Assembly: GCA_046483205.1 (NCBI GenBank)
Contig: JAWODS010000345.1
Location: forward strand, 1-41,975
Direction of reading: 5' to 3'
Length of the DNA stretch: 41,975 nt
Origin: Armatimonadota bacterium
Lineage (GTDB): Bacteria; Armatimonadota; Zipacnadia; Zipacnadales; UBA11051
Shown: piece by piece, positions 10,231 through 22,665 of the stretch
How positions within the stretch are numbered: the stretch's first letter is position 1
How the letters are laid out: the number at the start of each line of letters is the position of its first letter
The notes under the pieces: model-generated
The model's input: only the letters and a program-made list of their open reading frames with translations
Database searches by the model: none
Told to the model about the DNA's origin: nothing
Made by a program: the position numbers and the translations under genes

Positions 10231-11196
10231 ATGCGGAATGTGACTTTTGCTCGCGCGCTGAATGAGGCGCTTCACGAGGAGTTTGAACGCGACGAAAACG
10301 TATTCTTGATCGGGGAGGAAGTTGGGGGCGTTTTCGGTGTCACCCGTGGACTGGATCGGACCTTCGGCGAGGACCGCGTGCGCTGTACCCCGATATCGGA
10401 GGCGGCATTCACGGGGCTGGGTGTCGGTGCTGCGATGGCTGGCCTGCGGCCCATCGTCGAAATCATGTATCTCGATTTCGCCACCTGCGCGTGGGACCAG
10501 ATTACCAACCAGGCGGCAAAGCTGCGGTACATGTCCGGCGGGCAGGTGAAAGTGCCCCTCACCATCCGCGGCCAGCAGGGAGCAGGCACCCGCGAGGCCG
10601 CACAGCATTCGCAGCAGCTTGAAGCCGCGTTCGGCCATATCCCGGGGCTGAAGGTCGTCATGCCCGCCACCGTGGAAGATGCCAGGGGCCTGCTGAAATC
10701 GTCCATACGCGATAACAATCCCGTGATTTTCTGCGAACATCGCCTGATGTATGAGCTTAAGGGCCCGATGCCGAAAGAGGAGTACACCACCCCGCTGGGT
10801 GTTGCAAAGGTGCAGCGCGAGGGCGCCGATATCACCGTTGTCGCCACCTCCAACGCCATGCAGAAATCGCTCCAGGCCGCGGAGAACCTTGCGGACGAAA
10901 TTGATGTCGAAGTCGTTGACCCGCGAACCGTCGTACCTCTGGACATCGAAACGATTCTCGAATCCGTCCATAAAACCGGCAGGCTTCTGGTGGTGCACGA
11001 GGCACCCGTGCGCATGGGATTTGGCGCGGAGGTGGTGCGTCTGGTGACAGAGCAGGCCTTCGATGACCTGCAGGCGGCACCACGCGTACTGGGAGGTATC
11101 CCGGTCCCCATGCCCTACAGCTCGGTCCTCGAAGACGCCTGTATTCCGGAGGTTTCGCAGATCGAGACGGCTATCAAAGACGTCATGGAGAGCTGA
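10231..11196 (+). CDS. 2-oxoacid/acetoin dehydrogenase E1 beta subunit (PdhB/AcoB-like)
   Basis: GEEVG, TPISEAAF, LRPIVEIMY.DF, AAQHSQ and VDPRTVVPLD. Confidence 0.93.
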   Translation: MRNVTFARALNEALHEEFERDENVFLIGEEVGGVFGVTRGLDRTFGEDRVRCTPISEAAFTGLGVGAAMAGLRPIVEIMYLDFATCAWDQITNQAAKLRYMSGGQVKVPLTIRGQQGAGTREAAQHSQQLEAAFGHIPGLKVVMPATVEDARGLLKSSIRDNNPVIFCEHRLMYELKGPMPKEEYTTPLGVAKVQREGADITVVATSNAMQKSLQAAENLADEIDVEVVDPRTVVPLDIETILESVHKTGRLLVVHEAPVRMGFGAEVVRLVTEQAFDDLQAAPRVLGGIPVPMPYSSVLEDACIPEVSQIETAIKDVMES

Positions 11197-12560
11197 TGAT
11201 GAGAAACCACGAGGAGCTTGTTGAGGCGGCAAAAAAGCACGTCTGGCTGCATTTTGCGCACTATGATGACGTCGAAGAACGCCCCAAAATTTTCGTCCGC
11301 GGTGACGGAATGTACCTGTGGGATGATGAGGGGAATAAATACCTGGACACGTTTGCGTCGCTTCTGACAACGGTGTGCGGGCATCATCGGCCGGAGGTCC
11401 ACCGGGCCGTGCAGGAGCAGATGGAGCAGCTCGAGTTTTTTCCCAACTACCACGACTGCTACAACATCCCCTCCATCGAGCTGGCTGAAAAAATCGCCGA
11501 GGTCACGCCGGGGAACCTGGATGTGTCGTTTTTCGTCTGTGGCGGGTCGGAGGCCAACGAGTCGGCCATGAAGATGGCGCGGCAGTACTTCCACGAAACC
11601 GGCCAGAGCGGGCGGTTCAAGGTCCTCGCCAAAAAGTGGAGCTACACCGGCGCGACGATGGGGACGGTGTCCGCCACCGGCATTCCGTGGTTCTGGGAGA
11701 CTTTCGGTGCCCGCCAGCCGGGATATGAGTTTTACAACCCCGAATGGTACTATCACCGAAAGCTCGGTCTCGACGAGGCGGACGCCGCCGACATCGCGCT
11801 CAAAGATTTCCGCGAGCTGGTGGAGTTCGAGAACCCCGGCACCATCGCCGCGGTGATCATGGACACCGTCTCAGGCTCAAATACCGGTTACTGGGTGCCC
11901 TCGAAAAAATTCATGCAGGGCGTGCGGGAGACCTGTGACGAGCACGGCATCCTGCTGATTTTTGACGAGATCCAGGTCGGGTTTGCCAAGACGGGCAAAT
12001 GGTTCTGCTGCGAGCATTTCGATGTTGTGCCCGATATCATGACGGTTGGCAAGGGCTTCTCCGGGGGGTATCTGCCGCTTGCGGCGGCGATTACGACCCA
12101 GAAGATCGCCGAACCGTTCCGCAAGGAGGGGTCCGAATTTCGCCACGGCTTCACCTTCGGCGGCCACACCACGGCCTGTGCGGCGGCGCTTGCCAATCTC
12201 AATATCATCGAGGATGAAAACCTCGTTCAGCGGGCGGCCGAGCGCGGAGAATACCTTAAAAAGAAGCTGGAGGCGCTGAAGAAATACCCGATCGTCGGCG
12301 ATGTCCGGGGCATCGGCCTGCTGCTGGCGGTGGAGTTGCTGGAGGACCGCGAAACGTGGAAAGAGCTTGAACCCGGCGGGGGCACAGTCGGCACCTTCAT
12401 CCGCAACCGCATGTACGAAAAGGGCATGATCCTGCGCAACAACGCCGATATCCTGGTTTTTGCGCCCTCTTTGACCATCTCCGAGGAGCAGATTGATGAG
12501 ATGATCGCAGGCACCGAGGAGGCCATCGCCGCCGCCTGCGAGGAGTTTGGCTACAGCTAA
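11196..12560 (+). CDS. Class III PLP-dependent aminotransferase (omega-transaminase-like)
   Basis: GGSEANE, FDEIQVGFAKTG, DIMTVGKG (PLP lysine), HGFTFGGH and VRGIGL; 1-nt overlap with the E1 beta stop. Confidence 0.9.
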   Translation: MMRNHEELVEAAKKHVWLHFAHYDDVEERPKIFVRGDGMYLWDDEGNKYLDTFASLLTTVCGHHRPEVHRAVQEQMEQLEFFPNYHDCYNIPSIELAEKIAEVTPGNLDVSFFVCGGSEANESAMKMARQYFHETGQSGRFKVLAKKWSYTGATMGTVSATGIPWFWETFGARQPGYEFYNPEWYYHRKLGLDEADAADIALKDFRELVEFENPGTIAAVIMDTVSGSNTGYWVPSKKFMQGVRETCDEHGILLIFDEIQVGFAKTGKWFCCEHFDVVPDIMTVGKGFSGGYLPLAAAITTQKIAEPFRKEGSEFRHGFTFGGHTTACAAALANLNIIEDENLVQRAAERGEYLKKKLEALKKYPIVGDVRGIGLLLAVELLEDRETWKELEPGGGTVGTFIRNRMYEKGMILRNNADILVFAPSLTISEEQIDEMIAGTEEAIAAACEEFGYS

Positions 12561-12644
12561 ACAAATGGCCGCACCCGGACTGAAGAACAAGAAGGCATGA
12601 CACACTAAGGCCGCGCCAGATAGATAGAGGAAGTGGGTCAACCA

Positions 12645-13694
12645 ATGGCATATCCGAATGTGCTGGAGGATGTTCAGACGTGTATTGATCTCGGAGTCCC
12701 GAGCCGTGTCCCGATTTTTATGCTCGGTGAAGAGTTCGACGTGGAGCAGTATGACATTGACTACCGCGAATATATCAAAAGCCCCGAAGACATGATCGAG
12801 TGCTGGGTGCAGGCGGTGGAGACGTTTGATTACGACTGGATCCTCCTGCACCCGGACGACTATATCGAGTTCGAGCCGCTGGGAGTGAAGACACAGGCCG
12901 ATGCAAAGACGCCGCCGGCGCCGGTGGAGCAGATCGAGGCGGATATTGATGTCCTGAAATCGCTGGAGATACCTGACGCGGCCACGGCCGGGCGGATGCC
13001 CGCACACCTGGAGGCGCTCCGGGGGATCCGCGAGCGTATGGGCGATTCGGTGATGCTCGCCGGGCGCGTGGCGGCGCCCTTCAGTTCCGTTGGATTGCTG
13101 TTCGGTGTCCAGGAGGCGCTGATGCTCATGCTGACGGACCCGGGACTGTTCAACGCGGCGCTCAATTTTTGCACTGACCTGATGATCTACTGGGGCCAGC
13201 AGCAGCTCGACGCCGGGGCGGATGCGCTGTGGGTGGGTGACTGTGTAGCCTGCTCGGGCTTTATCTCCGCAGGTGATTACGAAATGTACGCATATCCCGG
13301 CGCAACGAAGCTCTGCAGCGCCATCCGGGAGGCCGGTGGATGGGCGTATTACCACGCCGGTGAGCACAGCCTACAGCATTTGCGCCTCGAGGCCGCCACC
13401 GGGTGTGATATCCTCAATGTCGGCGAGGGGATTGATCTGGCGGAAGTGAAGGCCGAACTCGGCGACACGGTGTGTCTTTCGGGCAACATCAACCCCATCG
13501 AGCTTTTCGAGATGAAAGACCTCGATAACGTGAGAGCTGCCACACGCCGGGTGATGGAGGCCGGGAAACCGGGTGGCGCCTATATCTTTAACTCCGGTGA
13601 AGGCGTCCCGCGCCCTACGAGTGCTGAAACCATCGCCGCATGCATGGAAACCGCCAGATCAATGGCTCCCTATGAAGAGGCTGATGCGCAGTGA
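12645..13694 (+). CDS. Uroporphyrinogen decarboxylase / MtaA-CmuA superfamily TIM-barrel protein
   Basis: AAPFS, QQLDAGAD, LSGNINP and PGGAYIFNSG pattern. Alternative start GTG 12633. Confidence 0.8.
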   Translation: MAYPNVLEDVQTCIDLGVPSRVPIFMLGEEFDVEQYDIDYREYIKSPEDMIECWVQAVETFDYDWILLHPDDYIEFEPLGVKTQADAKTPPAPVEQIEADIDVLKSLEIPDAATAGRMPAHLEALRGIRERMGDSVMLAGRVAAPFSSVGLLFGVQEALMLMLTDPGLFNAALNFCTDLMIYWGQQQLDAGADALWVGDCVACSGFISAGDYEMYAYPGATKLCSAIREAGGWAYYHAGEHSLQHLRLEAATGCDILNVGEGIDLAEVKAELGDTVCLSGNINPIELFEMKDLDNVRAATRRVMEAGKPGGAYIFNSGEGVPRPTSAETIAACMETARSMAPYEEADAQ

Positions 13695-14770
13695 GCGAGA
13701 TTCTGAAGTGCGCGATTGTCGGATATGGCCCGATATGGAATTTCGGGCAGATGCACGCGAGGTGGATGGAGCATTGTGAGCGCATGAAGCTGGTGGCGGT
13801 GTGCGACATTGACGCCGAGGCCAGGCAGCGGGCCCTGGAGGATTGGCCGGGTATTGATGTCTATGGCTCCACCGAAGAAATGGTGCACGACGAGACCATT
13901 GACATGGTGACGGTCGTCACACCGCACTTCACCCACGCCGATATCGTCACCACCTGTCTCGATGCGGGTAAGCACGTGGTGTGCGAAAAGGCGATGGCGA
14001 CGAATGTTGCCGAATGCACGCGGATGGTCGAGGCCGCTGAGGCCGCCGACCGCACGCTCGCGATCCACCACAACAGGCGCCATGACGGCAACTACCGGAT
14101 CATCGAGCAGGCCGTCGCAGACGGGATGATCGGTGACCTGTTTCATGTTGAGTGCTGTGAAGAAAGCTACGGCCACATGGGCGACTGGTGGTATTCGGAT
14201 AAGGAAAAGTCGGGGGGAATATTCTTCTTCTGGGGGCCTCACGCTGTTGACTGGGTTTTGAACCTGGTGCCATCGCGTCCGGTCAGAGTGACCGGCTCCA
14301 CCCAGCGGCGGATGTGGAATGATATTTCGGTGGCCGACGAGGTGCGCTGCTTTATCTGGTTTGAAGGTGGTCAGACTGCAGAAATCACCTATTCCACCAT
14401 CGCCGCCATTGACCGGCCGCTGTGGAGAGTTCTGGGCACCCGGGGCGCCATCGAAGATTCGAAGCGCGGGAACGTGTCCGGCGCGTATATTCAGGGCTAC
14501 TGTGAGGAACTCGTCGGTGAGGCGGGACAGGGTTCCATCCGCGTGGTCACCACCGACGGCGACAAACCCAAAGAGCACGACCTGCCGTATCTCCAATCAG
14601 ACTGGACGTCATACTACGAAGACATGGCCGCCCACCTGCTCGACGGAACACCCGTTCCCGTGTCGGCCGAAGAAGGTCGCCGAACCGTCGCCGTAATGCA
14701 GGCCGCACAGGAATCGGGCGAAGCAAACGGCACGATGATAGAGCTGGAGGATTATGAGCAACAACAGTAG
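13691..14770 (+). CDS. Gfo/Idh/MocA family oxidoreductase
   Basis: AIVGYG Rossmann motif, GKHVVCEK, HNRR and SGG...GPHAVD. Confidence 0.92.
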   Translation: MSEILKCAIVGYGPIWNFGQMHARWMEHCERMKLVAVCDIDAEARQRALEDWPGIDVYGSTEEMVHDETIDMVTVVTPHFTHADIVTTCLDAGKHVVCEKAMATNVAECTRMVEAAEAADRTLAIHHNRRHDGNYRIIEQAVADGMIGDLFHVECCEESYGHMGDWWYSDKEKSGGIFFFWGPHAVDWVLNLVPSRPVRVTGSTQRRMWNDISVADEVRCFIWFEGGQTAEITYSTIAAIDRPLWRVLGTRGAIEDSKRGNVSGAYIQGYCEELVGEAGQGSIRVVTTDGDKPKEHDLPYLQSDWTSYYEDMAAHLLDGTPVPVSAEEGRRTVAVMQAAQESGEANGTMIELEDYEQQQ

Positions 14771-15044
14771 CGAACAGGTCATTGTGGCAATCCCCGAGCC
14801 ACTGCGGGCAATCGTGGGTGGACACCGCGAACTGGGCGTTGCCCCCGGAACCGTCGCCGAGGTCTTAGTGCAGTTGACAGAGCAGTATCCCGACCTTGGC
14901 CCGGCACTTGTGACAGAAAGTGGGCGGCTCGCCGACGCGACGGTGCTGGCCGTTGACGGACGCGATATCCGCTTTGCCGAAGGGCTCAATACCACCATTA
15001 AAGCCGGACAGACGCTTGTGATAGTCCAGACGCTGGGCATTTAA
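14754..15044 (+). CDS. MoaD/ThiS/SAMP-like beta-grasp (ubiquitin-like) protein lacking C-terminal GG
   Basis: IPEPLR..GTVAEVL..L...YP.L...VDGRDIRFAEGLNT.IK.G matches the CysO/MoaD pattern; ends QTLGI. Confidence 0.75.
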   Translation: MSNNSSEQVIVAIPEPLRAIVGGHRELGVAPGTVAEVLVQLTEQYPDLGPALVTESGRLADATVLAVDGRDIRFAEGLNTTIKAGQTLVIVQTLGI

Positions 15045-15134
15045 TGCCGACCGGGCGGGTATTTGGGAGAACATTGTGACCTCTTAGGCGTCATAGTAGA
15101 TAGAGAAGACAAACGCCGGCGCGGGGAGTATCGT

Positions 15135-16328
15135 ATGAAACTGCGTACCACCGTTGTGACAATCTGTATCGTGGTACTGCTGCTGAATGCGGCAGCGGTC
15201 TTTGCCGGGTCACCGCCGTATTCCAAAGAGGCGGAAGAAGCGGCCGGCAAAGAGGTATGCGCGGCAATTGAAAAAGAATACGACGTGTGGGATGACGAGG
15301 AAGCCTACAAGAAGGTCGCCCACATGGTCGAGACTATCACACCCCACACGCAGCGCCCGGATATTGAATATGAAGTCAAGCTGCTGGATACCGACGAGGT
15401 CAACGCATTCAGCGTTCCAGGTGGCAACATCTATGTGTGCCGCGGCCTGGTGGAAGACGCCCAATCTGACGACGAGCTGGCAGCAGTTATTGCCCACGAG
15501 ATAGCCCACAACTGCACCTACGATGCAATGAAGCAGGCCGAACGCAACAGGAAGCTTTTTATCGGCGGTGTCTCCGCGGCGCTGCTGACAATCTTCCTGG
15601 GAGCCTCCAGCGAAGACGTGGCGGGAGTCCTGCAGGCGGGTGGTTTCCTCCGTCAGGGTATATTGAGCAAGTATTCCAAGGATATGGAAGAACGCGCCGA
15701 CAAAAACGCCATCTCCTACATGATGGAGACCGACTACGATCCGGTGGGACTTTTGACGTTCATGGAGCGGCTCCTGGCCAGGGAGGCGGGCCATTACCGC
15801 CCCGACTACGGAATCTTCGAAACCCACCCCGCCCCCATAGACCGCCGGGGGTATCTCATCCAGACGCTGTACGAGGCCGGGGCTGAGATCAACAGGCGCG
15901 CGGTGACGGCCTGGGAGGCTCCGACGTACGAGCTCATCAGACCCGACGGTGACGAAGAGTCGGCCCCCACCGCGGCGACGATCAGTCTGTGGGATATTGA
16001 GATCATCACCATCCGGACACCGGGCGACTTTGACAGCATCGAGGCACGCGCCGAAGCGATATGTCACACTCTCAAAAACTCCCTGGCGGCCGGATTGCAG
16101 CGCTATGAGGTGCAGACTGCCCGACATGACGACCATGTGACGGTTGACCTCCGTCGCATCCCCATGGTGACTATCCATCCTGAAGATGTGGTAGCCGCCA
16201 GGGAGGCCACGGAAACGGACACCGAGAATACAGAATCGCAGATTACAGCCGACACCATCGCACAGGATATCGTTACGGCAGTCGCCAGGGCACTGTATGT
16301 CGAAGCACTGAACAGGCGGCACGAATAA
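15135..16328 (+). CDS. Secreted M48 family zinc metallopeptidase with C-terminal extension
   Basis: Signal peptide from MKLRTTVV (GGAG RBS); NAFSVPGG, HEIAH, EERAD and THP. Confidence 0.9.
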   Translation: MKLRTTVVTICIVVLLLNAAAVFAGSPPYSKEAEEAAGKEVCAAIEKEYDVWDDEEAYKKVAHMVETITPHTQRPDIEYEVKLLDTDEVNAFSVPGGNIYVCRGLVEDAQSDDELAAVIAHEIAHNCTYDAMKQAERNRKLFIGGVSAALLTIFLGASSEDVAGVLQAGGFLRQGILSKYSKDMEERADKNAISYMMETDYDPVGLLTFMERLLAREAGHYRPDYGIFETHPAPIDRRGYLIQTLYEAGAEINRRAVTAWEAPTYELIRPDGDEESAPTAATISLWDIEIITIRTPGDFDSIEARAEAICHTLKNSLAAGLQRYEVQTARHDDHVTVDLRRIPMVTIHPEDVVAAREATETDTENTESQITADTIAQDIVTAVARALYVEALNRRHE

Positions 16329-16835
16329 ATGGGGCAGTATGTGACAATCGAGAAGTGGGCCGAAAACCTCGAGGAAGTCACCATCGGCCAGTGGCACAAA
16401 AAGCAGGGAGACACCATCGAGGCTGGCGAAGTTCTCTGCGAGATTATCACCGATAAGCTTACCTTCGAATACACCCCCGAAACCGGGGGTACCGTCACTC
16501 ACATCTACGCCGCCGAAAACAGCGTCGTACCCGTGGGTTATATCATCGCCTTCATCTCCGAAGCCGGAGAAGAGCCCGATACGGACGTCGAGAGGCGCAA
16601 CAATCACCTGCTGCAGCAGCGCCGTGAAGCGACGGAAGCAGAGCTTGACCTCGACGACATCTTTGAAGCCGCAAAAAAGCCGCAGTCCCGCTCCCGGGTG
16701 AAAGCCGCTCCGGCCGCGCGCCGTCTCGCCCGTGAAAACGATGTGGATATTGAAGATGTCGCCGAATGGCTGGGTGACGCCCCGGGCCTCGTCAGCAAAG
16801 CGGATGTGGAGAGCTATCTGCAAGAGATGCGATAA
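16329..16835 (+). CDS. Lipoyl domain + peripheral-subunit (E3)-binding domain protein; E2-like without acyltransferase domain
   Basis: [23 protein letters not shown] (lipoyl lysine) and [15 protein letters not shown]...G.VSKADVE, then a stop at 168 aa. Confidence 0.88.
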
Positions 16836-16837
16836 CT

Positions 16838-17584
16838 GTGATTGATCTGAGCGGAAAAGTCGCGCTGGTGACGGGTGCCTCACGCGGGCTGGGACGAGCG
16901 ATTGCGCTTCAGCTCGCCGCGGTTGGCGCCGACGTAGCCGTCAACTACCTCGAAAGCTCCGAGGCCGCCGAAGAAACCGCCGCAGAGATCCGGCAAAGGG
17001 GCTCGGAAGCTTACGTGTGCCAGGCAGATGTGCGTGACGCTGATGCGGTCAAACAGATGGTCTCGGATATCGTTGCAGCGCTCGACGGCCTCGACATTCT
17101 CGTCAACAACGCCGGTATCATCGCCGACCAGTTCCTCCTGTTCATGAAAAAAGAGCAGTGGGATGATGTGCTGGACACTTCGCTGACAGGTGCCTTCAAC
17201 TGCACGCAGGCGGCCGTGCGACAGATGATGAAAAACAGGTGGGGCCGGATTGTCAATATCTCCTCGGACGCCGGCCTGATGGGCGATCTGCAGCGGGCGA
17301 ACTACAGCGCCGCCAAAGCCGGTCTGACAGGCTTCACGAAGGCAGCCGCACGAGAGCTGATCGGCCAGGGCATTACCGCAAACGCCGTCGCCCCGGGGAT
17401 CATAAACACCGACCTGACCGCCGATATGAACGAGACGCGCAAAGAGCAGATGGAGCAGATGATCCCCGCCGGGCGGTTCGGAAATCCCGAAGAGGTTGCT
17501 CCGCTGGTTGCTTTTTTGTGCTCCGAGCAGGCATCATACATTACCGGCCAGGTTTTCAGCGTTGATGGCGGCCTCCGCATGTAA
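16838..17584 (+). CDS. fabG: 3-oxoacyl-ACP reductase (SDR)
   Basis: [27 protein letters not shown] and VDGG. Confidence 0.85.
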
Positions 17585-17640
17585 CGGTGTCTCAACTCTC
17601 CCCCTTTCCTCTCTTGCACCCGTGGCTGTGTCGGGTTATT

Positions 17641-17680
17641 ATTAAGAATAGATTAAGATTTTATAAAACCTGGATTAAGA
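17641..17680 (+). promoter_or_regulatory. 11-bp-period direct repeat array (Pho-box-like / OmpR-PhoB family site)
   Basis: ATTAAGA at 17641, 17652 and 17674, with degenerate ATAAAAC at 17663, in an AT-rich island about 125 nt upstream of the DUF47-pit operon. Confidence 0.65.
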
Positions 17681-17803
17681 GCCGGTGTGCAGGATCCGCG
17701 CCATTTACTCCTCATCCGTTTTGACGATCATGCTGCCACAGCACCGTGGCGGTACCGGTATCCCGGCCATTGACGAACGCTCGGCACGAAAGGGGCTGCA
17801 GAA

Positions 17804-18469
17804 ATGCCGGAACGCAACAAGTTTCTGGACGCGCTCCAGCGTGTTATGCGGGGATTTGCGCCCAGTGAAGAGAACTTCTATGAGCTTTTTGAGCGGCTCG
17901 CCACCAAAGCCTATGAAGCCGCACAGTGTCTGGACGATGTCGTTCACAGGTATCACCGGCTTGAGCTGAATGTTGAGAAAATCGCCGATATCGAGCACGA
18001 TGCGGATGATATTGTCCACGAAGTGGTTCGACGGCTCAATACCACTTTTGTCACCCCCGCCCTGTTTGACCGCGAGGACATCTACCGCGTCGCCGAACGT
18101 CTTGACGATATTATCGACCAGACAAAAGGGGTCATTGACCGCCTCCAGTTGTTTGATATTGAGGAGCCGACGGGCCGCTGCGTGGAGATGAGCGATATCT
18201 TTCTTAATGCGGCCGAGTGCCTGCAAATAAACATGCAGGACCTGTCCAACATGGAGCCGTCCAACTGCGAGCATGTCGCCGAGATCAACGCGCTGGAAAA
18301 CCAGGGCGATGTGGTTAACCGTGCTGCGATGAGCGAGCTCTTCGAATACGACGGCGATCCCAGATACATCATGAAATGGCTGCAGATATATCAGTTCATG
18401 GAGGGTGCCATTGATGCCTGCGAGGGTGCGGCAAACCTCGTTGAGGCAGTGGTGGTAAAGAATGCCTAG
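17804..18469 (+). CDS. DUF47 family phosphate transport regulator (PhoU-like, Pit accessory)
   Basis: IEHDADDI, TFVTP..DREDI, LENQGD, E.AID.CE and VVKNA. Confidence 0.92.
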   Translation: MPERNKFLDALQRVMRGFAPSEENFYELFERLATKAYEAAQCLDDVVHRYHRLELNVEKIADIEHDADDIVHEVVRRLNTTFVTPALFDREDIYRVAERLDDIIDQTKGVIDRLQLFDIEEPTGRCVEMSDIFLNAAECLQINMQDLSNMEPSNCEHVAEINALENQGDVVNRAAMSELFEYDGDPRYIMKWLQIYQFMEGAIDACEGAANLVEAVVVKNA

Positions 18470-19490
18470 CTGGGTTATCGCCACGGTATTTTTCGGCCTT
18501 GTGTTCAACTTCATGAACGGGTTTCACGATACGGCCAATGCAATAGCTACCTCCATCCTCACCCGCGCTTTGAGCATACGCCAGGCGATAGTGTTCGCCG
18601 CCGGCCTGAACTTCCTCGGGGCGCTGGTTAGCGTCAGAGTCGCTACCACCATGGGGAAAGGCATCGTGGATCCGGCCGACACGACCAACACCGTTGTGAT
18701 GGCGGCGTTGATCGGCGGGATCTGCTGGCTTTTGATTACCTGGTATTTCGGTCTCCCCACGAGCTGCTCGCACACGCTCATTGGCGGGACTGTCGGTGCC
18801 GTCCTGGCGGATCACACGACAGTTCACGCCACTGCCGGTCAACTGGGATGGACGATGAATTACAGTATTCTGCAGTTCGACGGGTTGCAGAAAATCATCA
18901 TCGCCCTGCTGGTGTCTCCAATCATCGGCATTATCGGCGGCGCGATGCTGATGATTCTTCTTTTGCATATTTTCGGCCACTGCGTCCCGGCGGTCCTCAA
19001 CCGGTACTTCAAGCGCTTCCAGGTGGTCTCCGCCGGCTTCATGGCTTTCAGTCATGGCTCCAATGACGCCCAGCAGATTATGGGGATTATTACATTGACG
19101 CTTTTCGCCAGCGGCGTTTACACCGGGGATTTTATCGTCCCCCTGTGGGTAAAAATCGCGTCGGCCGCCGCCATCGCCCTGGGAACAGCCGCCGGAGGCT
19201 GGAGGATTATCAAGACCATCGGTAGAAAGGTTATGGAGCTGAAGCCGATTCACGGATTTGCGGCAGAAACCGCGGCGGCCTCCACAATCCAGCTCGCCAC
19301 TCATTTTGGGGCGCCCGTCAGCACCACACACGTCATCTCAACCGCCATCATGGGCGTCGGGCTGTCGCATCGGCTCACCGCGGTCCGATGGGGCATCGTC
19401 GGCCAGATCGTCGGCGCCTGGATACTCACTCTGCCCGTGTCGATGGTTTTCGGCGCTGTGACTTACTGGATTATGAACGGCTGGTTATAA
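18462..19490 (+). CDS. pit: Inorganic phosphate transporter, PiT family
   Basis: GFHDTANA, GLPTS.SH, HGSNDAQ and PVSTTH signature motifs. Confidence 0.95.
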   Translation: MPSWVIATVFFGLVFNFMNGFHDTANAIATSILTRALSIRQAIVFAAGLNFLGALVSVRVATTMGKGIVDPADTTNTVVMAALIGGICWLLITWYFGLPTSCSHTLIGGTVGAVLADHTTVHATAGQLGWTMNYSILQFDGLQKIIIALLVSPIIGIIGGAMLMILLLHIFGHCVPAVLNRYFKRFQVVSAGFMAFSHGSNDAQQIMGIITLTLFASGVYTGDFIVPLWVKIASAAAIALGTAAGGWRIIKTIGRKVMELKPIHGFAAETAAASTIQLATHFGAPVSTTHVISTAIMGVGLSHRLTAVRWGIVGQIVGAWILTLPVSMVFGAVTYWIMNGWL

Positions 19491-19499
19491 TAGTCATAT

Positions 19500-20747
19500 A
19501 TGGCAGCGACAACCGCTACACCACAAAGACGGGCCGTGATTACCGGCCTGGGAGCCGTCACACCACTCGGTACGGGGGTTGACACGTTCTGGACCCATCT
19601 GACGGCCGGTGAACGCGGCATAAGGCCGATTACGAAATTTAACCCTGAGGGCCTGCGCAACGAAAAGGCGGGCGAAATCCGGGACTGGTCGTTTGCACCG
19701 TCCGACTTCAATCTCGCTGACGCCCCCGACGAAGCGGCTCAATTCCTCCTGCAGGCGGCCTCCCAGGCCTTTGCAGACGCCGGGCTTGAACGTCATTTCT
19801 GCCCTTCTGACATTGACCCTCACACCGGGACGGTCCTCGCCACGAATTTCGCAGGCATGACCGCCTGGGACGCGTATATGAATTCAGTGCTGGACGGTGC
19901 ACCCGATGCGGCGGCATTTTCCGGATTCGGCTTCGACCACGCGCTGGGACAGGTCGCCCGGGTGTTTGGTATGGGCGGCCCGTGCAGCGTCACTTCCATG
20001 GCCTGTGCATCAGGAACGGCGGCAGTGGGGATTGCCCGCGATGAAATTGTCCGTGGTAATGCCGAGGTCATGCTCGCCGGAGGGTATGACAGCCTCTCAC
20101 CCACGCTGTTGAGCGGTCTCAGCCTCCTGCGAACCATCACCGACGACGATCTGCGCCCATTTTCAGCCAATCGCAGCGGCACACTTTTTGGCGAGGGCTC
20201 CGCCGCACTCGTCGTCGAATCCTACGAGCACGCAGTCCGGCGGGGCACAAAGATTTACTGCGAGGTGCTCGGGCACTGGCAGAATAACAACGCCTACCAT
20301 CTCACCGCCCCTGACAGCGGTGGCGCCGGAATGGCCCGGGCTCTGGGCAAAGCGCTCGAAGTGTCGGGTGTCGATCCGGCAGCCATTGATCACATCAACG
20401 CCCACGGCACCGGAACCGAGTACCATGATGTCGCCGAGACCGAGGCGATTAAGACGGTTTTGGGCGATCATGCCTACGAGGTGACCGTGGTCTCCATCAA
20501 GGGAGCCCTGTCGCATCTCATGGGCGCTGCCGGAGCCATCGAGGCCGTGACCACGGCTCTATCCATCGCCCACCAGAGAGTCCCGCCGACCACCAACTAC
20601 TCCGAGCCCGATCCTGAATGCGATCTTGATTACGTCACCGGCGGTGCCCGCGAGCAGCAGATCCGCAACGCTGCCAGCATCTCCGCAGGTATCGGCGGCG
20701 ATAACGCCTGCGTCGTTTTTGGGGCTGTGCCTGAGAATAACCAATGA
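19500..20747 (+). CDS. Beta-ketoacyl-ACP synthase II-like (FabF / type II KS)
   Basis: VITGLG, catalytic MACASG, GEG, NAHGTGT and KGALSHLMGAAG; atypical C-terminal SAGIGGDN. Confidence 0.92.
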   Translation: MAATTATPQRRAVITGLGAVTPLGTGVDTFWTHLTAGERGIRPITKFNPEGLRNEKAGEIRDWSFAPSDFNLADAPDEAAQFLLQAASQAFADAGLERHFCPSDIDPHTGTVLATNFAGMTAWDAYMNSVLDGAPDAAAFSGFGFDHALGQVARVFGMGGPCSVTSMACASGTAAVGIARDEIVRGNAEVMLAGGYDSLSPTLLSGLSLLRTITDDDLRPFSANRSGTLFGEGSAALVVESYEHAVRRGTKIYCEVLGHWQNNNAYHLTAPDSGGAGMARALGKALEVSGVDPAAIDHINAHGTGTEYHDVAETEAIKTVLGDHAYEVTVVSIKGALSHLMGAAGAIEAVTTALSIAHQRVPPTTNYSEPDPECDLDYVTGGAREQQIRNAASISAGIGGDNACVVFGAVPENNQ

Positions 20748-21694
20748 CCACCACCGGAGACAGGACAAATGGCGTTGTTGTAACCGGCGTCGGGCCGATC
20801 AGCTCGATCGGTATCGGGCGGGCGGACTTCCTTGAGGGTCTTCGCACCTCTCGAGAGGGTGCCGGCCCGTCCGAGCGCATGAAAAGCACCGGCTCTTTTG
20901 CAGAAGTCGCTGAATGCCGCGATTTTGTCCTTGATGACTATTTGGAGAGCGAAAAGACCTATCTCGACAGGTGTTCGGAACTGGCGCTTGCATCCTGCAT
21001 CCTGGCATTCGACGACGCCGGTATTAGCCGGCAGGAGATCGATGGCGAAACCGTCGGCATCTCCCTGGGGACGTCGTTCGGCTGCCTGGAGTCGCTGACG
21101 AATCACACCGCACGCGTTCAGAAGCGGGGCGTACGGTTCGGCTCTCCGATGATTTTCACCCACGCCATGGCAAACTCAGCCACGGCACTTTGCGCCATCG
21201 AATACGATATCCTGGGGCCGTGTGCGACATTCTGCACGGCCGATGTCGCGGCCGCCAGCGCGCTGCAATTCGCCTGGCGGGCTGTGGCAGACGGACGGGC
21301 CGAGTACGTCCTCGCCGGAGGGTGTGATGCTTTGACGCCGGCGCTCCTGCAGGGCATCGGTCCGGATGTATTGCCGGAAAAGACAGCACCCGGTGAGGGT
21401 GCCGCCATGTTCGTGCTGGAAACGCTGAAACACGCGCGCAAACGCGGCGCGGCGATTATCGCCGAAATAACTGATGTCGGCGTATCAGGCCGGGCTGAAG
21501 CGTCGGAAACATTCGCCATCTTCAGCCTCCCCTCCCCCCGCCCGTACGGACACACTTTCGGAGCATCAGTCGCACTCGACCTCGCAACCCTGATGCTGCA
21601 GGACGCACCGGGTGGATACAGCTTCCAGAGCTATCGCCCCTCGGATGTCGCAAACCGCCCTGCAGCCGAAATCGTCTTCGGGAGGCCCCAATGA
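20744..21694 (+). CDS. Inactive ketosynthase-like protein (chain-length-factor-like)
   Basis: VVTGVG, YLDR, LAGG.D, PGEGAA and GHTFGAS are present, but TAC is replaced by TAD, HGT is missing and the protein is only 316 aa. Confidence 0.8.
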   Translation: MTTTGDRTNGVVVTGVGPISSIGIGRADFLEGLRTSREGAGPSERMKSTGSFAEVAECRDFVLDDYLESEKTYLDRCSELALASCILAFDDAGISRQEIDGETVGISLGTSFGCLESLTNHTARVQKRGVRFGSPMIFTHAMANSATALCAIEYDILGPCATFCTADVAAASALQFAWRAVADGRAEYVLAGGCDALTPALLQGIGPDVLPEKTAPGEGAAMFVLETLKHARKRGAAIIAEITDVGVSGRAEASETFAIFSLPSPRPYGHTFGASVALDLATLMLQDAPGGYSFQSYRPSDVANRPAAEIVFGRPQ

Positions 21695-22665
21695 CTCACG
21701 ATTGCGATGAGCTCATCGAACATTACGGACGGATGGTGCTGATCCGCCGGTTTGAGCAGCATCTCAGCGACCTGTTTGCAACCGGCGCCATTGCCGGCAC
21801 CTCTCATTTCTGCATCGGCCAGGAAGCCTGCGCCGTCGGTGCAACAGCGGCTCTGGATGATGAGGACATGGTCGCATCAAACCACCGCGGACACGGCCAT
21901 TTCCTCGCCAAAGGCGGAGACCCCAGGCGGATGATGGCCGAGCTCATGGGCAAAGAGGCCGGATACTCCGGCGGGCGGGGCGGATCGCAGCACATGGCGA
22001 ATTTTGATATCGGCTTTCTCGGCTCCAACGGCATCACCGCCGGGATGATCCCCGTCGCCACCGGTGCGGCCCTCACCCAGAAAATACACCGGACCGGCCG
22101 CGTCGTGCTCTGTTTTTTCGGTGACGGCGCCTGCGGACAGGGCGCATTTCACGAGGCGGTGAATATGGGAGCGATCTGGAAGCTGCCGGTGATCTATTTC
22201 CTCGAAAATAACCTTTACGCCATGAGCACCGCAGCCTCCGACATGTTCCCTATTGAGAACCTCGCCGACCGGGCTCACTCGTATGGCATTCCCGGAGTGG
22301 TGGTGGATGGAAACGACTACTTTTCGGTGCGGGAGGTCACTTTCGATGCGGTCAATCGCGCCCGGGCCGGTGAGGGCCCGTCACTCATTGAGGCGAAGAC
22401 GTACCGCCAGTGCGGCCATTCCAAGAGCGACCGGTGCGAATACCGGTCGGATGACGAAGAGCAGCGGTGGCTGCAGCGGGACCCGCTCGTGATCATGCGA
22501 GAGCGATTGCTGCAGGATGGTGTGGCTTGTGCAGCGGCCCTGGATTCGGTGGAGGAGCGGGCGCAAAAGCAAATTGAAGAAGCTTCTGATTACGCCGAGA
22601 ATTGTCCGGAGCCGGACCCCGCGACCGCAGATGCGGATGTTTTCAGCGACCCGGCGTGCTCTTGA
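21691..22665 (+). CDS. TPP-dependent dehydrogenase E1 alpha subunit (PdhA/AcoA-like)
   Basis: GQEA, HRGHGH, GRGGSQH, GDGA...ENN TPP motif and TYR..GHS..D. Confidence 0.93.
   Translation: MTHDCDELIEHYGRMVLIRRFEQHLSDLFATGAIAGTSHFCIGQEACAVGATAALDDEDMVASNHRGHGHFLAKGGDPRRMMAELMGKEAGYSGGRGGSQHMANFDIGFLGSNGITAGMIPVATGAALTQKIHRTGRVVLCFFGDGACGQGAFHEAVNMGAIWKLPVIYFLENNLYAMSTAASDMFPIENLADRAHSYGIPGVVVDGNDYFSVREVTFDAVNRARAGEGPSLIEAKTYRQCGHSKSDRCEYRSDDEEQRWLQRDPLVIMRERLLQDGVACAAALDSVEERAQKQIEEASDYAENCPEPDPATADADVFSDPACS

Follow-up and report, generated by a model that had tools for sequence, protein, structure and literature searches.

To our knowledge, lipoyl arms serve in the 2-oxoacid dehydrogenases, in the glycine cleavage system, and in a few natural-product loading modules that retain an E2 acyltransferase domain. 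Glycolyl-acyl carrier protein (ACP) is loaded by QncN/QncL/QncM in the quinocarcin pathway and by SclQ1-4 in the scleric acid pathway, and the scleric acid cluster also encodes a phosphopantetheinyl transferase (PPTase), SclP (available excerpt of PMC6335953). Pairs of FabF-like ketosynthases (KSs) form a second group of described systems. AmcF-AmcG of cispentacin biosynthesis extends an unusual starter, bound to an ACP, by one C2 unit (excerpt of PMC10698177), ApeO-ApeC of the aryl polyenes is a pair of FabF-homolog KSs (excerpt of PMC8358021), and a FabF pair is reported from a ladderane cluster (excerpt of bioRxiv 10.64898/2026.05.19.726425). Here we describe a gene system that has parts of both. 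It was found in a 41,975-nucleotide stretch of DNA from an Armatimonadota bacterium (the window hereafter; contig JAWODS010000345.1 of assembly GCA_046483205.1, contig C270 within that assembly). The source is a 466-contig metagenome-assembled genome (MAG) that is 87.6% complete; among named genomes, MAGs of Candidatus Zipacnadia and Armatimonadia are closest to it. The window encodes a lipoyl carrier (Lip) that has a peripheral subunit-binding domain (PSBD) and no acyltransferase domain, a second 3-oxoacyl-ACP reductase (FabG'), an active KS, a KS-like partner without the active-site Cys (dead KS), and the alpha subunit (E1-alpha') of a pyruvate dehydrogenase (PDH)-type, thiamine diphosphate (ThDP)-dependent E1. 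Very probably these five form one functional system with a beta subunit (E1-beta'), a glycosyltransferase (GT2), a dedicated ACP (ACP'), a hydrolase, and a second type of glycosyltransferase (GT4), all encoded beyond the end of the window.

A first-pass annotation of the window had described six open reading frames (ORFs) on the forward strand, and their coordinates and Pfam content hold (Table 1). Direct reading of the sequence also confirmed its gene junctions. Lip and FabG' are separated by a 2-nt gap (TAA-CT-GTG), KS overlaps dead KS and dead KS overlaps E1-alpha' by ATGA, and an E1-beta gene at 10231 meets a class-III aminotransferase gene at TGATG. The annotation had treated all six ORFs as one unit. 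This stands for Lip, FabG', KS, dead KS, and E1-alpha', which are recurrent neighbours and form compact operons, and it fails for the E1-beta gene at 10231 and its aminotransferase. Whole-genome family searches with PF00198, PF02852, and PF00550 gave no match in the window and matches on other contigs only. The reported lack of an E2 catalytic domain, an E3, and an ACP is thus true of the window and not of the genome, where the three are on C439, C147, and C22.

The neighbourhood comparison covered 151 sampled genomes of Armatimonadota. A short Lip form (an open frame of at most 318 aa, with 127 further matches beyond those listed) was present in at least 42 genomes, a dead-KS ortholog (judged from E-value, identity, and frame length) in 43, and both in 41. 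These genomes fall in families f1-f7, f9, f14, f16, f20, f22, and f37. Neighbours were clustered using a greedy ORF caller, which loses real genes to opposite-strand ORFs in G+C-rich DNA, and the family counts from this clustering are lower bounds. The run Lip-FabG-KS-deadKS-E1a is contiguous in a more distant Armatimonadia MAG (L024, 45-63% identity), where unrelated genes on the opposite strand stand on both sides. The same five-gene run is unbroken in L048 (G149, f1), L054 (G092, f6), and L085 (G140, f4). The PhoU/PHO4 pair that stands between FabG' and KS in the window was not found at that position in any of these four loci.

Shorter runs were found in other families. These include Lip-KS-deadKS in all three f7 loci, Lip-FabG adjacency in f2, f3, f4, f5, and f9, FabG-KS-deadKS in 3/3 f20 loci fetched around dead KS, KS-deadKS-E1a-E1b' in G013, and E1a...E1b'-GT2-ACP-hydrolase-GT4 in G027. 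The carrier adjoins FabG and/or KS-deadKS in loci of f1-f7 and f9, 10 family groups have a FabG' ortholog beside Lip or KS, and dead KS follows KS in 26 of the 30 loci that hold an ortholog. A PPTase gene (PF01648) separates Lip from FabG, or else adjoins FabG, in three loci of f5, f9, and f20. The five core genes thus recur across families of Armatimonadota and, as described below, in MAGs of the Planctomycetota-Verrucomicrobiota-Chlamydiota (PVC) group. The first-pass annotation had cautioned that, with unrelated genes interleaved, co-location might partly reflect genome shuffling; with the same neighbours recurring in this way, it goes beyond chance.

Loci outside the phylum were identified with a scan based on the carrier alignment, followed by tblastn with all cluster proteins, and are named here by the taxon labels of their database records. 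A Verrucomicrobia MAG (L188) has ten genes in the order Lip-FabG-KS-deadKS-E1a-E1b'-GT2-ACP-hydrolase-GT4, with four overlapping stop/start junctions. The same ten-gene order is present in a member of the Kiritimatiellia (L206), where the hydrolase query gave no match and Pfam identifies an alpha/beta-hydrolase. Both operons therefore encode ThDP-dependent E1 parts, a lipoyl arm, and an ACP together. The order is kept up to GT2 in L190 (Verrucomicrobiota), up to E1b' at the contig end in L189 (Lentisphaerales), and with two inserts in L088 (Victivallaceae label), and partial gene sets occur in L184, L193, L234, and L087. GT2 directly follows E1b' in L077, L088, L188, L190, and L206, and ACP' orthologs are present in L077, L088, L188, and L206. 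PF00198 had no match in the window, on C22, or among the genes of the L188 and L088 operons. A separate scan for distant dead-KS homologs, built on five sequences, had one generic pattern out of two; ordinary FabF made up 77 of the 80 loci that it returned, and L087, L088, and L089 were the only informative ones. The operon appears to be undescribed in spite of its wide conservation. Carrier homologs are named only generically in public databases, dead KS matches only generic 'beta-ketoacyl synthase N-terminal-like' clusters in the ESM Atlas, and a full-text literature search outside subscription journals and supplementary material returned no description.

The second half of the system in this genome is on contig C22. 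A single aldehyde dehydrogenase gene crosses the joint between the two contigs; its part in the window covers positions 7-328 of the Pfam profile, and its part on C22 covers 269-461. Together with the 191-nt overlap, the split gene indicates that C22 continues the window and that an assembly break conceals the second half of the operon. E1-beta' starts approximately 0.4 kb beyond the window end and is followed by a 182-aa ORF that stands between it and GT2. The system is spread over approximately 32 kb in three pieces, of which C22 holds the third. A block of BlaI, BlaR1, cytidylyltransferase, and LCP (LytR_cpsA_psr) genes follows E1-alpha', in an order common to L022, L023, and L025, and separates E1-alpha' from E1-beta' in the window's family; E1-alpha' and E1-beta' are adjacent in G149 and G013.

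Table 1. Positions of the cluster genes and neighbouring features in the window (C270) and on contig C22.
Feature	Contig	Position	Strand	Basis
E1-beta (type A) and class-III aminotransferase, separate unit	C270	10231..12560	+	E1-beta 10231-11196: Transket_pyr + Transketolase_C
M48 metallopeptidase	C270	15063-16328
Lip+PSBD carrier, 168 aa, no E2 catalytic domain	C270	16329..16835	+	Pfam Biotin_lipoyl + E3_binding only
FabG', second 3-oxoacyl-ACP reductase, cluster-dedicated	C270	16838..17584	+	SDR/KR; TIGR01830 309.8 bits vs cut-off 297.75
PhoU_div + PHO4 phosphate-transport pair, insertion outside the system	C270	17804..19490	+	Pfam
Active FabF-like KS, Cys169-His267-His302	C270	19500..20747	+	Pfam ketoacyl-synt N + C
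Dead KS, 316 aa, like a chain-length factor (CLF)	C270	20744..21694	+	Pfam ketoacyl-synt N only
E1-alpha' (type B), PDH-type ThDP enzyme, cluster-specific paralog	C270	21691..22665	+	E1_dh 285.8 bits
BlaI-BlaR1-cytidylyltransferase-LCP block	C270	22745-26245
Overlap: last 191 nt of window, first 191 nt of C22	C270	41785..41975	+	Exact suffix/prefix identity
E1-beta' (type B)	C22	599-1600
Unknown ORF, 182 aa	C22	1634-2182
GT2	C22	2186-3073
ACP', 84 aa, DS motif present	C22	3086-3340 (~3 kb past window end)
Two alpha/beta-hydrolases	C22	up to 5103
Three GT4 genes, then MurJ	C22	up to 10456

Identification of E1-beta' on C22 changes the partner of E1-alpha'. The genome has three E1 systems, namely E1-alpha' of the window, an E1-alpha on C340 that is 44% identical to it, and a fused alpha-beta E1 on C437. 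E1-beta sequences also number three: the gene at 10231, the C22 gene, and the fused one on C437. We use type B for the KS-linked clade (E1-alpha' and E1-beta') and type A for the pair of the 10231 and C340 type. E1-beta genes downstream of KS-deadKS-E1a in G149, G013, and G027 (L048, L076, and L077) are 65-72% identical to the C22 gene, and that of L088 is 50% identical to it; all four are only 45-48% identical to the gene at 10231. The latter is 79% identical to a G067 gene that directly follows a C340-type E1-alpha. In a maximum-likelihood (ML) tree, the 10231 gene and the G067 gene form a clade (100/100) apart from the E1-beta' clade, and the C22 gene groups with KS-linked E1-beta (99/97). 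E1-alpha' belongs to its own 16-row clade with every KS-linked E1-alpha, including those of f14 and L088, and not with canonical PDH E1-alpha. The C340 E1-alpha groups with canonical PDH E1-alpha of f19 and f12 (95/93). These identities and trees identify the 10231 E1-beta and its overlapping aminotransferase as a separate unit. On the same sequence evidence, the partner of E1-alpha' is E1-beta' on C22 and not, as initially proposed, the E1-beta at 10231. The aminotransferase is likewise removed from the system, as a class-III aminotransferase gene lies beside the cluster only in L023/L047 (one contig) and L025 among the loci compared. The second, type-A E1 pair has such a gene after it (window, Table 1; C340 6567-7550, L168; L047 2376-5717). 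Both copies of type-A E1-alpha examined have H-C-M-V in place of the usual GHS-x-SD loop around the catalytic His.

Catalytic and attachment residues are intact in the proteins that need them. Lys43, the lipoyl-lysine of the carrier, is kept in all 21 orthologs, and the PSBD motif is invariant or nearly so. The KS triad of Cys169, His267, and His302 is kept in 20/20 aligned orthologs. In dead KS, Asp occupies the Cys column, a variable position (D, S, M, G, L, A, and others across 15 orthologs), which bears out the original assignment of an active and a dead KS. His-His motifs were not found in the ortholog alignment of dead KS, and the protein is often truncated (217-405 aa across orthologs). 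KS and dead KS share one ORF in G149/L048 (6832-9060, 742 aa) and L025 (8753-10693, 646 aa), and also in G031 (C306, 741-aa frame) and G029 (611-aa frame). These fusions hint that the two act as one heterodimer, with sequencing errors as another possible source. Complex predictions for KS, dead KS, and whole Lip, with Lip as the partner, gave scores of 0.65, 0.67, and 0.63, against 0.01 and 0.00 for partner-swapped controls and 0.47 for a control with KS replaced; these scores count neither for nor against an interaction. Dead-KS motifs K71/Y73/D75 and F138/H140/N144 were considered as a new functional site and set aside, since they coincide with structural motifs of FabF. E1-alpha' retains GDG...NN and the histidine of GHS[KR]SD, and both motifs are present in 16/16 type-B E1-alpha sequences. 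THS and PISE are present in 7/7 type-B E1-beta sequences. By alignment, the type-B E1 keeps the equivalents of H128-beta, H271-alpha, and E59-beta of the Geobacillus stearothermophilus E1p.

The proposed route starts from a heterotetramer-type E1 (E1-alpha' with E1-beta' of C22) that would decarboxylate a small 2-oxo acid, pyruvate-like by default. The E1 would then reductively acylate the lipoyl-lysine of the free carrier, which would dock via its PSBD. H128-beta and H271-alpha of the G. stearothermophilus enzyme are implicated in reductive acetylation of lipoate (available excerpt of PMC2663715), and with these residues kept and the PSBD intact, it is most likely that the type-B E1 acylates the carrier. 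Because the operon has no E2 acyltransferase, the acyl acceptor would be either the KS Cys directly or ACP' through a hydrolase-fold transacylase. The KS/dead-KS heterodimer would receive the acyl group by one of these ways, and KS would condense it with malonyl-ACP. FabG' would reduce the 3-oxo group to give a short 3-hydroxyacyl-ACP', which hydrolase-fold enzymes and glycosyltransferases could use in assembling or decorating a surface glycan or a glycolipid. The housekeeping E3 would re-oxidise the carrier. GT2, GT4, hydrolase, and MurJ genes, together with the local LCP ligase, cytidylyltransferase, a further GT2, and a DegT-type sugar aminotransferase, point to a glycoconjugate, and the system probably serves acyl decoration of a cell-surface glycoconjugate. 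The initial suggestion of a diol or amino-alcohol is less consistent with GT2, ACP, alpha/beta-hydrolases, GT4, and MurJ as conserved partners. For the acyl route as a whole, from E1 through the lipoyl carrier and KS/ACP' to a glycoconjugate, we put the chances at about even. A stricter version was considered in which the KS/dead-KS pair stands in for the E2 core and the S-acyl-dihydrolipoyl arm acylates the KS Cys directly, taking a 2-oxo acid to 3-oxoacyl-ACP without coenzyme A (CoA). We hold this version only tentatively and consider it rather doubtful.

Several points weigh against the proposed role. FabF-type KSs are normally primed by acyl-ACP, not by lipoyl arms. The substrate, every transfer step, and the product are inferred from gene content. 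No dehydratase or enoyl reductase was found to be conserved in the operon by neighbour clustering. The best NCBIfam matches of the C22 hydrolases, to exosortase-A-associated hydrolase families, are below cut-off (hydr2_PEP, 111.8 bits vs 202.75; hydr1_PEP, 111.5 vs 168.45). Lip and KS-deadKS are on different contigs in many genomes (f14, f20, f22, and parts of f9), and the families with the system may be one or a few clades, in which case the co-occurrence counts overstate independence. Three genomes (G080 and G122 of f3, and G032 of f24) have a stand-alone E2 catalytic gene (236-241-aa frames) and no Lip or dead-KS match with these queries. This pattern indicates that the E2 catalytic protein and this Lip are not strictly tied, and it makes a reading as a split E2 tentative. 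With a stand-alone E2 catalytic gene and an E3 in the genome and in the class, Lip could simply serve an ordinary dehydrogenase complex whose E2 is split.

In such a complex, Lip would be the N-terminal half of E2 and would work with the catalytic protein of C439 and the E3 of C147, with FabG and KS as neighbours through co-regulation or inherited synteny. The C439 gene is the only PF00198 match in the genome. It is a 235-aa stand-alone gene among unrelated genes, and it best matches PDH acetyltransferase models. E3 (PF02852) is encoded by a 474-aa frame on C147, outside the cluster. The other two PF00364 matches are a biotin carboxyl carrier protein (BCCP) and a Lys-less BCCP-like protein, so the window carrier is the only E2-type lipoyl protein found in this incomplete genome, as a split E2 would predict. 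In the window genome's class, a stand-alone gene for the E2 catalytic domain is conserved (f1-f6, f24, and f22; 236-302-aa frames in most), with 44-73% identity across f1-f6 and f24, and Lip homologs are labelled 'PDH E2 component' by automatic annotation at JGI. In G092 (C44, L176), a fused E1 alpha-beta gene (711 aa) has a stand-alone E2 catalytic gene two genes away and a mannitol dehydrogenase gene in the same group; this fused E1 may be the partner of the bare E2 core. Against the split, PF00198 was not found in any of the four f14 genomes (96-98% complete), all of which hold Lip, KS-deadKS, GT2, a fused hydrolase, and a single type-B E1 pair (58-59% identical to E1-alpha' and 55-58% to E1-beta'). 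A separate gene that could complete the complex, a possibility raised by the first-pass annotation, is present on C439; in f14, the system is retained by genomes that have no E2 catalytic domain. All five PVC genomes that hold the operon encode an intact, full-length E2 elsewhere (452-468-aa frames), so the operon Lip is an extra, dedicated carrier there. Lip is also translationally packed with FabG, KS, type-B E1, GT2, and ACP genes in the compact operons of other phyla, and the linked E1 clade is distinct from canonical PDH E1. We consider a split E2 unlikely as the explanation of the cluster, although it may be true in addition, with the carrier common to two systems.

Sugar branching is improbable as well. 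Here E1-alpha' and E1-beta' would act as proposed for AviB1/AviB2 or Pau11/Pau12, KS/dead KS, FabG', and ACP' would make a separate acyl substituent, and Lip would be an accessory or redox partner. In the avilamycin and paulomycin clusters, a two-carbon branch of a sugar is proposed to arise through PDH-like E1 pairs, for which the available excerpt lists no lipoyl protein (PMC4425429). The succession of E1b' and GT2 on C22 and in L077, L088, L188, L190, and L206 would suit a sugar substrate. The position of Lip+PSBD as the first gene of a compact operon would not, nor would the retention of both lipoate-acylation histidines in the type-B E1 or the ATGA coupling of E1a' to dead KS. A private mini-fatty acid synthase (FAS), in which KS/dead KS, FabG', ACP', and a PPTase supply octanoyl-ACP for carrier lipoylation as in mitochondria, with cofactor supply and no new product as the outcome, could be read from a lipoate/biotin ligase-family gene two genes from Lip in G038 and from the three PPTase loci noted above, but is highly improbable given the lack of a conserved dehydratase or enoyl reductase, the complete housekeeping FAS II parts with FabH, and the GT2, GT4, and hydrolase genes that it leaves unexplained.

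The housekeeping FAS II genes include a fabG-acpP-fabF set on C262, whose FabG is 50% identical to FabG', and FabH is encoded on C173. Replacement of a missing FabH by KS/dead KS was ruled out, as PF08541 is present in 145 of the 151 sampled genomes, including this one.

Other features were observed around the cluster. An M48 metallopeptidase gene stops with TAA immediately before the carrier ATG, and M48 homologs lie near the carrier in loci of f5 and f22 (L053 and L061). In the PVC loci, a giant ORF is directly upstream of the carrier (L188, 3270-9968; L206, 3380-9970; L190, 4155-9986; 1943-2232 aa; and L088, 179-4066, 1295 aa). It has weak 3-keto-disaccharide-hydrolase/DUF6250-like matches only, and the system may act on it or work with it. 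The BCCP-like biotinyl-domain protein is on C297 (~2300-2700) and has Leu-Arg (E-A-L-R) in place of M-K at the biotin-attachment position. Two RNA-labelled salt-lake runs from two studies yielded short contigs that match parts of M48, Lip, PhoU, PHO4/KS, KS, and BlaI with 0 differences (shares 0.10 and 0.06). None of these contigs bridges two cluster genes, DNA carry-over is possible, and gaps in coverage carry no meaning; the contigs can do no more than hint at activity of the organism in those samples.

In at least two distant bacterial groups, a KS pair, a private ACP, and glycosyltransferases are tied to a lipoyl carrier that has a docking domain and lacks an acyltransferase. If the carrier feeds KS or ACP, the system would be a new junction of central carbon metabolism with acyl-chain assembly and, for Armatimonadota and the PVC group, whose phyla are little studied, the source of an envelope component. 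Direct lipoyl-to-KS transfer, if true, would prime chain synthesis by a new route and would give lipoyl swinging arms a new client. The locus also illustrates how an E2 can come apart, with the housekeeping E2 a bare catalytic protein in this lineage and f14 having lost E2 and kept the carrier. The ten-gene compact operon is small enough for heterologous expression and in vitro reconstitution.

Comparison with known systems places the cluster between several of them. Like the canonical PDH of G. stearothermophilus and humans, E1-alpha' and E1-beta' best match PDH E1 models and keep the catalytic residues, the lipoyl domain and PSBD are normal, and an E3 is in the genome. Unlike canonical PDH, there is no single-chain E2 and no E1a-E1b-E2 operon, whereas L172, L173, and L202-L229 have such an operon; the L202-L229 loci are ordinary E1a-E1b-E2 operons with full-length E2. 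The cluster differs from housekeeping FAS II in that KS scores below the cut-off of the fabF hidden Markov model (344.8 vs 493.75) and is not with acpP, although FabG' passes TIGR01830. An ACP followed by two paralogous alpha/beta-hydrolases in a glycan-related neighbourhood is shared with the exosortase-A-associated set (TIGR03100 and TIGR03101). The usual partners of that set are an acyl-CoA ligase and a pyridoxal phosphate (PLP)-dependent decarboxylase, neither of which was seen here. Aromatic CLFs are defined by a conserved Gln at the active-site position. In contrast, the Cys column of dead KS has no conserved Gln and reads D, S, M, G, D, L, A, A, M, M, A, A, among others, across the 15 orthologs. 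An active KS beside a Cys-less partner is the arrangement of the FabF-derived KS/CLF pairs, including highly reducing type II polyketide synthases (PKSs), ApeO-ApeC, AmcF-AmcG, and the ladderane pair. Sequence matches in the PDB include 6kxd A/B (a highly reducing type II PKS), 6smo, and 9s5h B/C, and the NCBIfam scores for AmcF (231.6 bits) and of ACP' for AmcB (61 bits) are both under cut-off. No E1 or lipoyl carrier is mentioned in the available excerpts on AmcF-AmcG, ApeO-ApeC, and the ladderane pair, whereas both are present here. The nearest described counterparts are the quinocarcin and scleric acid loading systems, in which a C2 unit is drawn from central metabolism through an E1 of the PDH/transketolase type (ThDP-dependent, with alpha and beta parts), a lipoyl arm, and a dedicated ACP (excerpt of PMC6335953). 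In those systems, according to the same excerpt, the lipoyl domain is fused to an E2 acyltransferase that passes the unit to an ACP feeding a nonribosomal peptide synthetase (NRPS). In the system described here, the carrier consists of lipoyl domain and PSBD only, and its partners are KS/dead KS, FabG, and glycosyltransferases.

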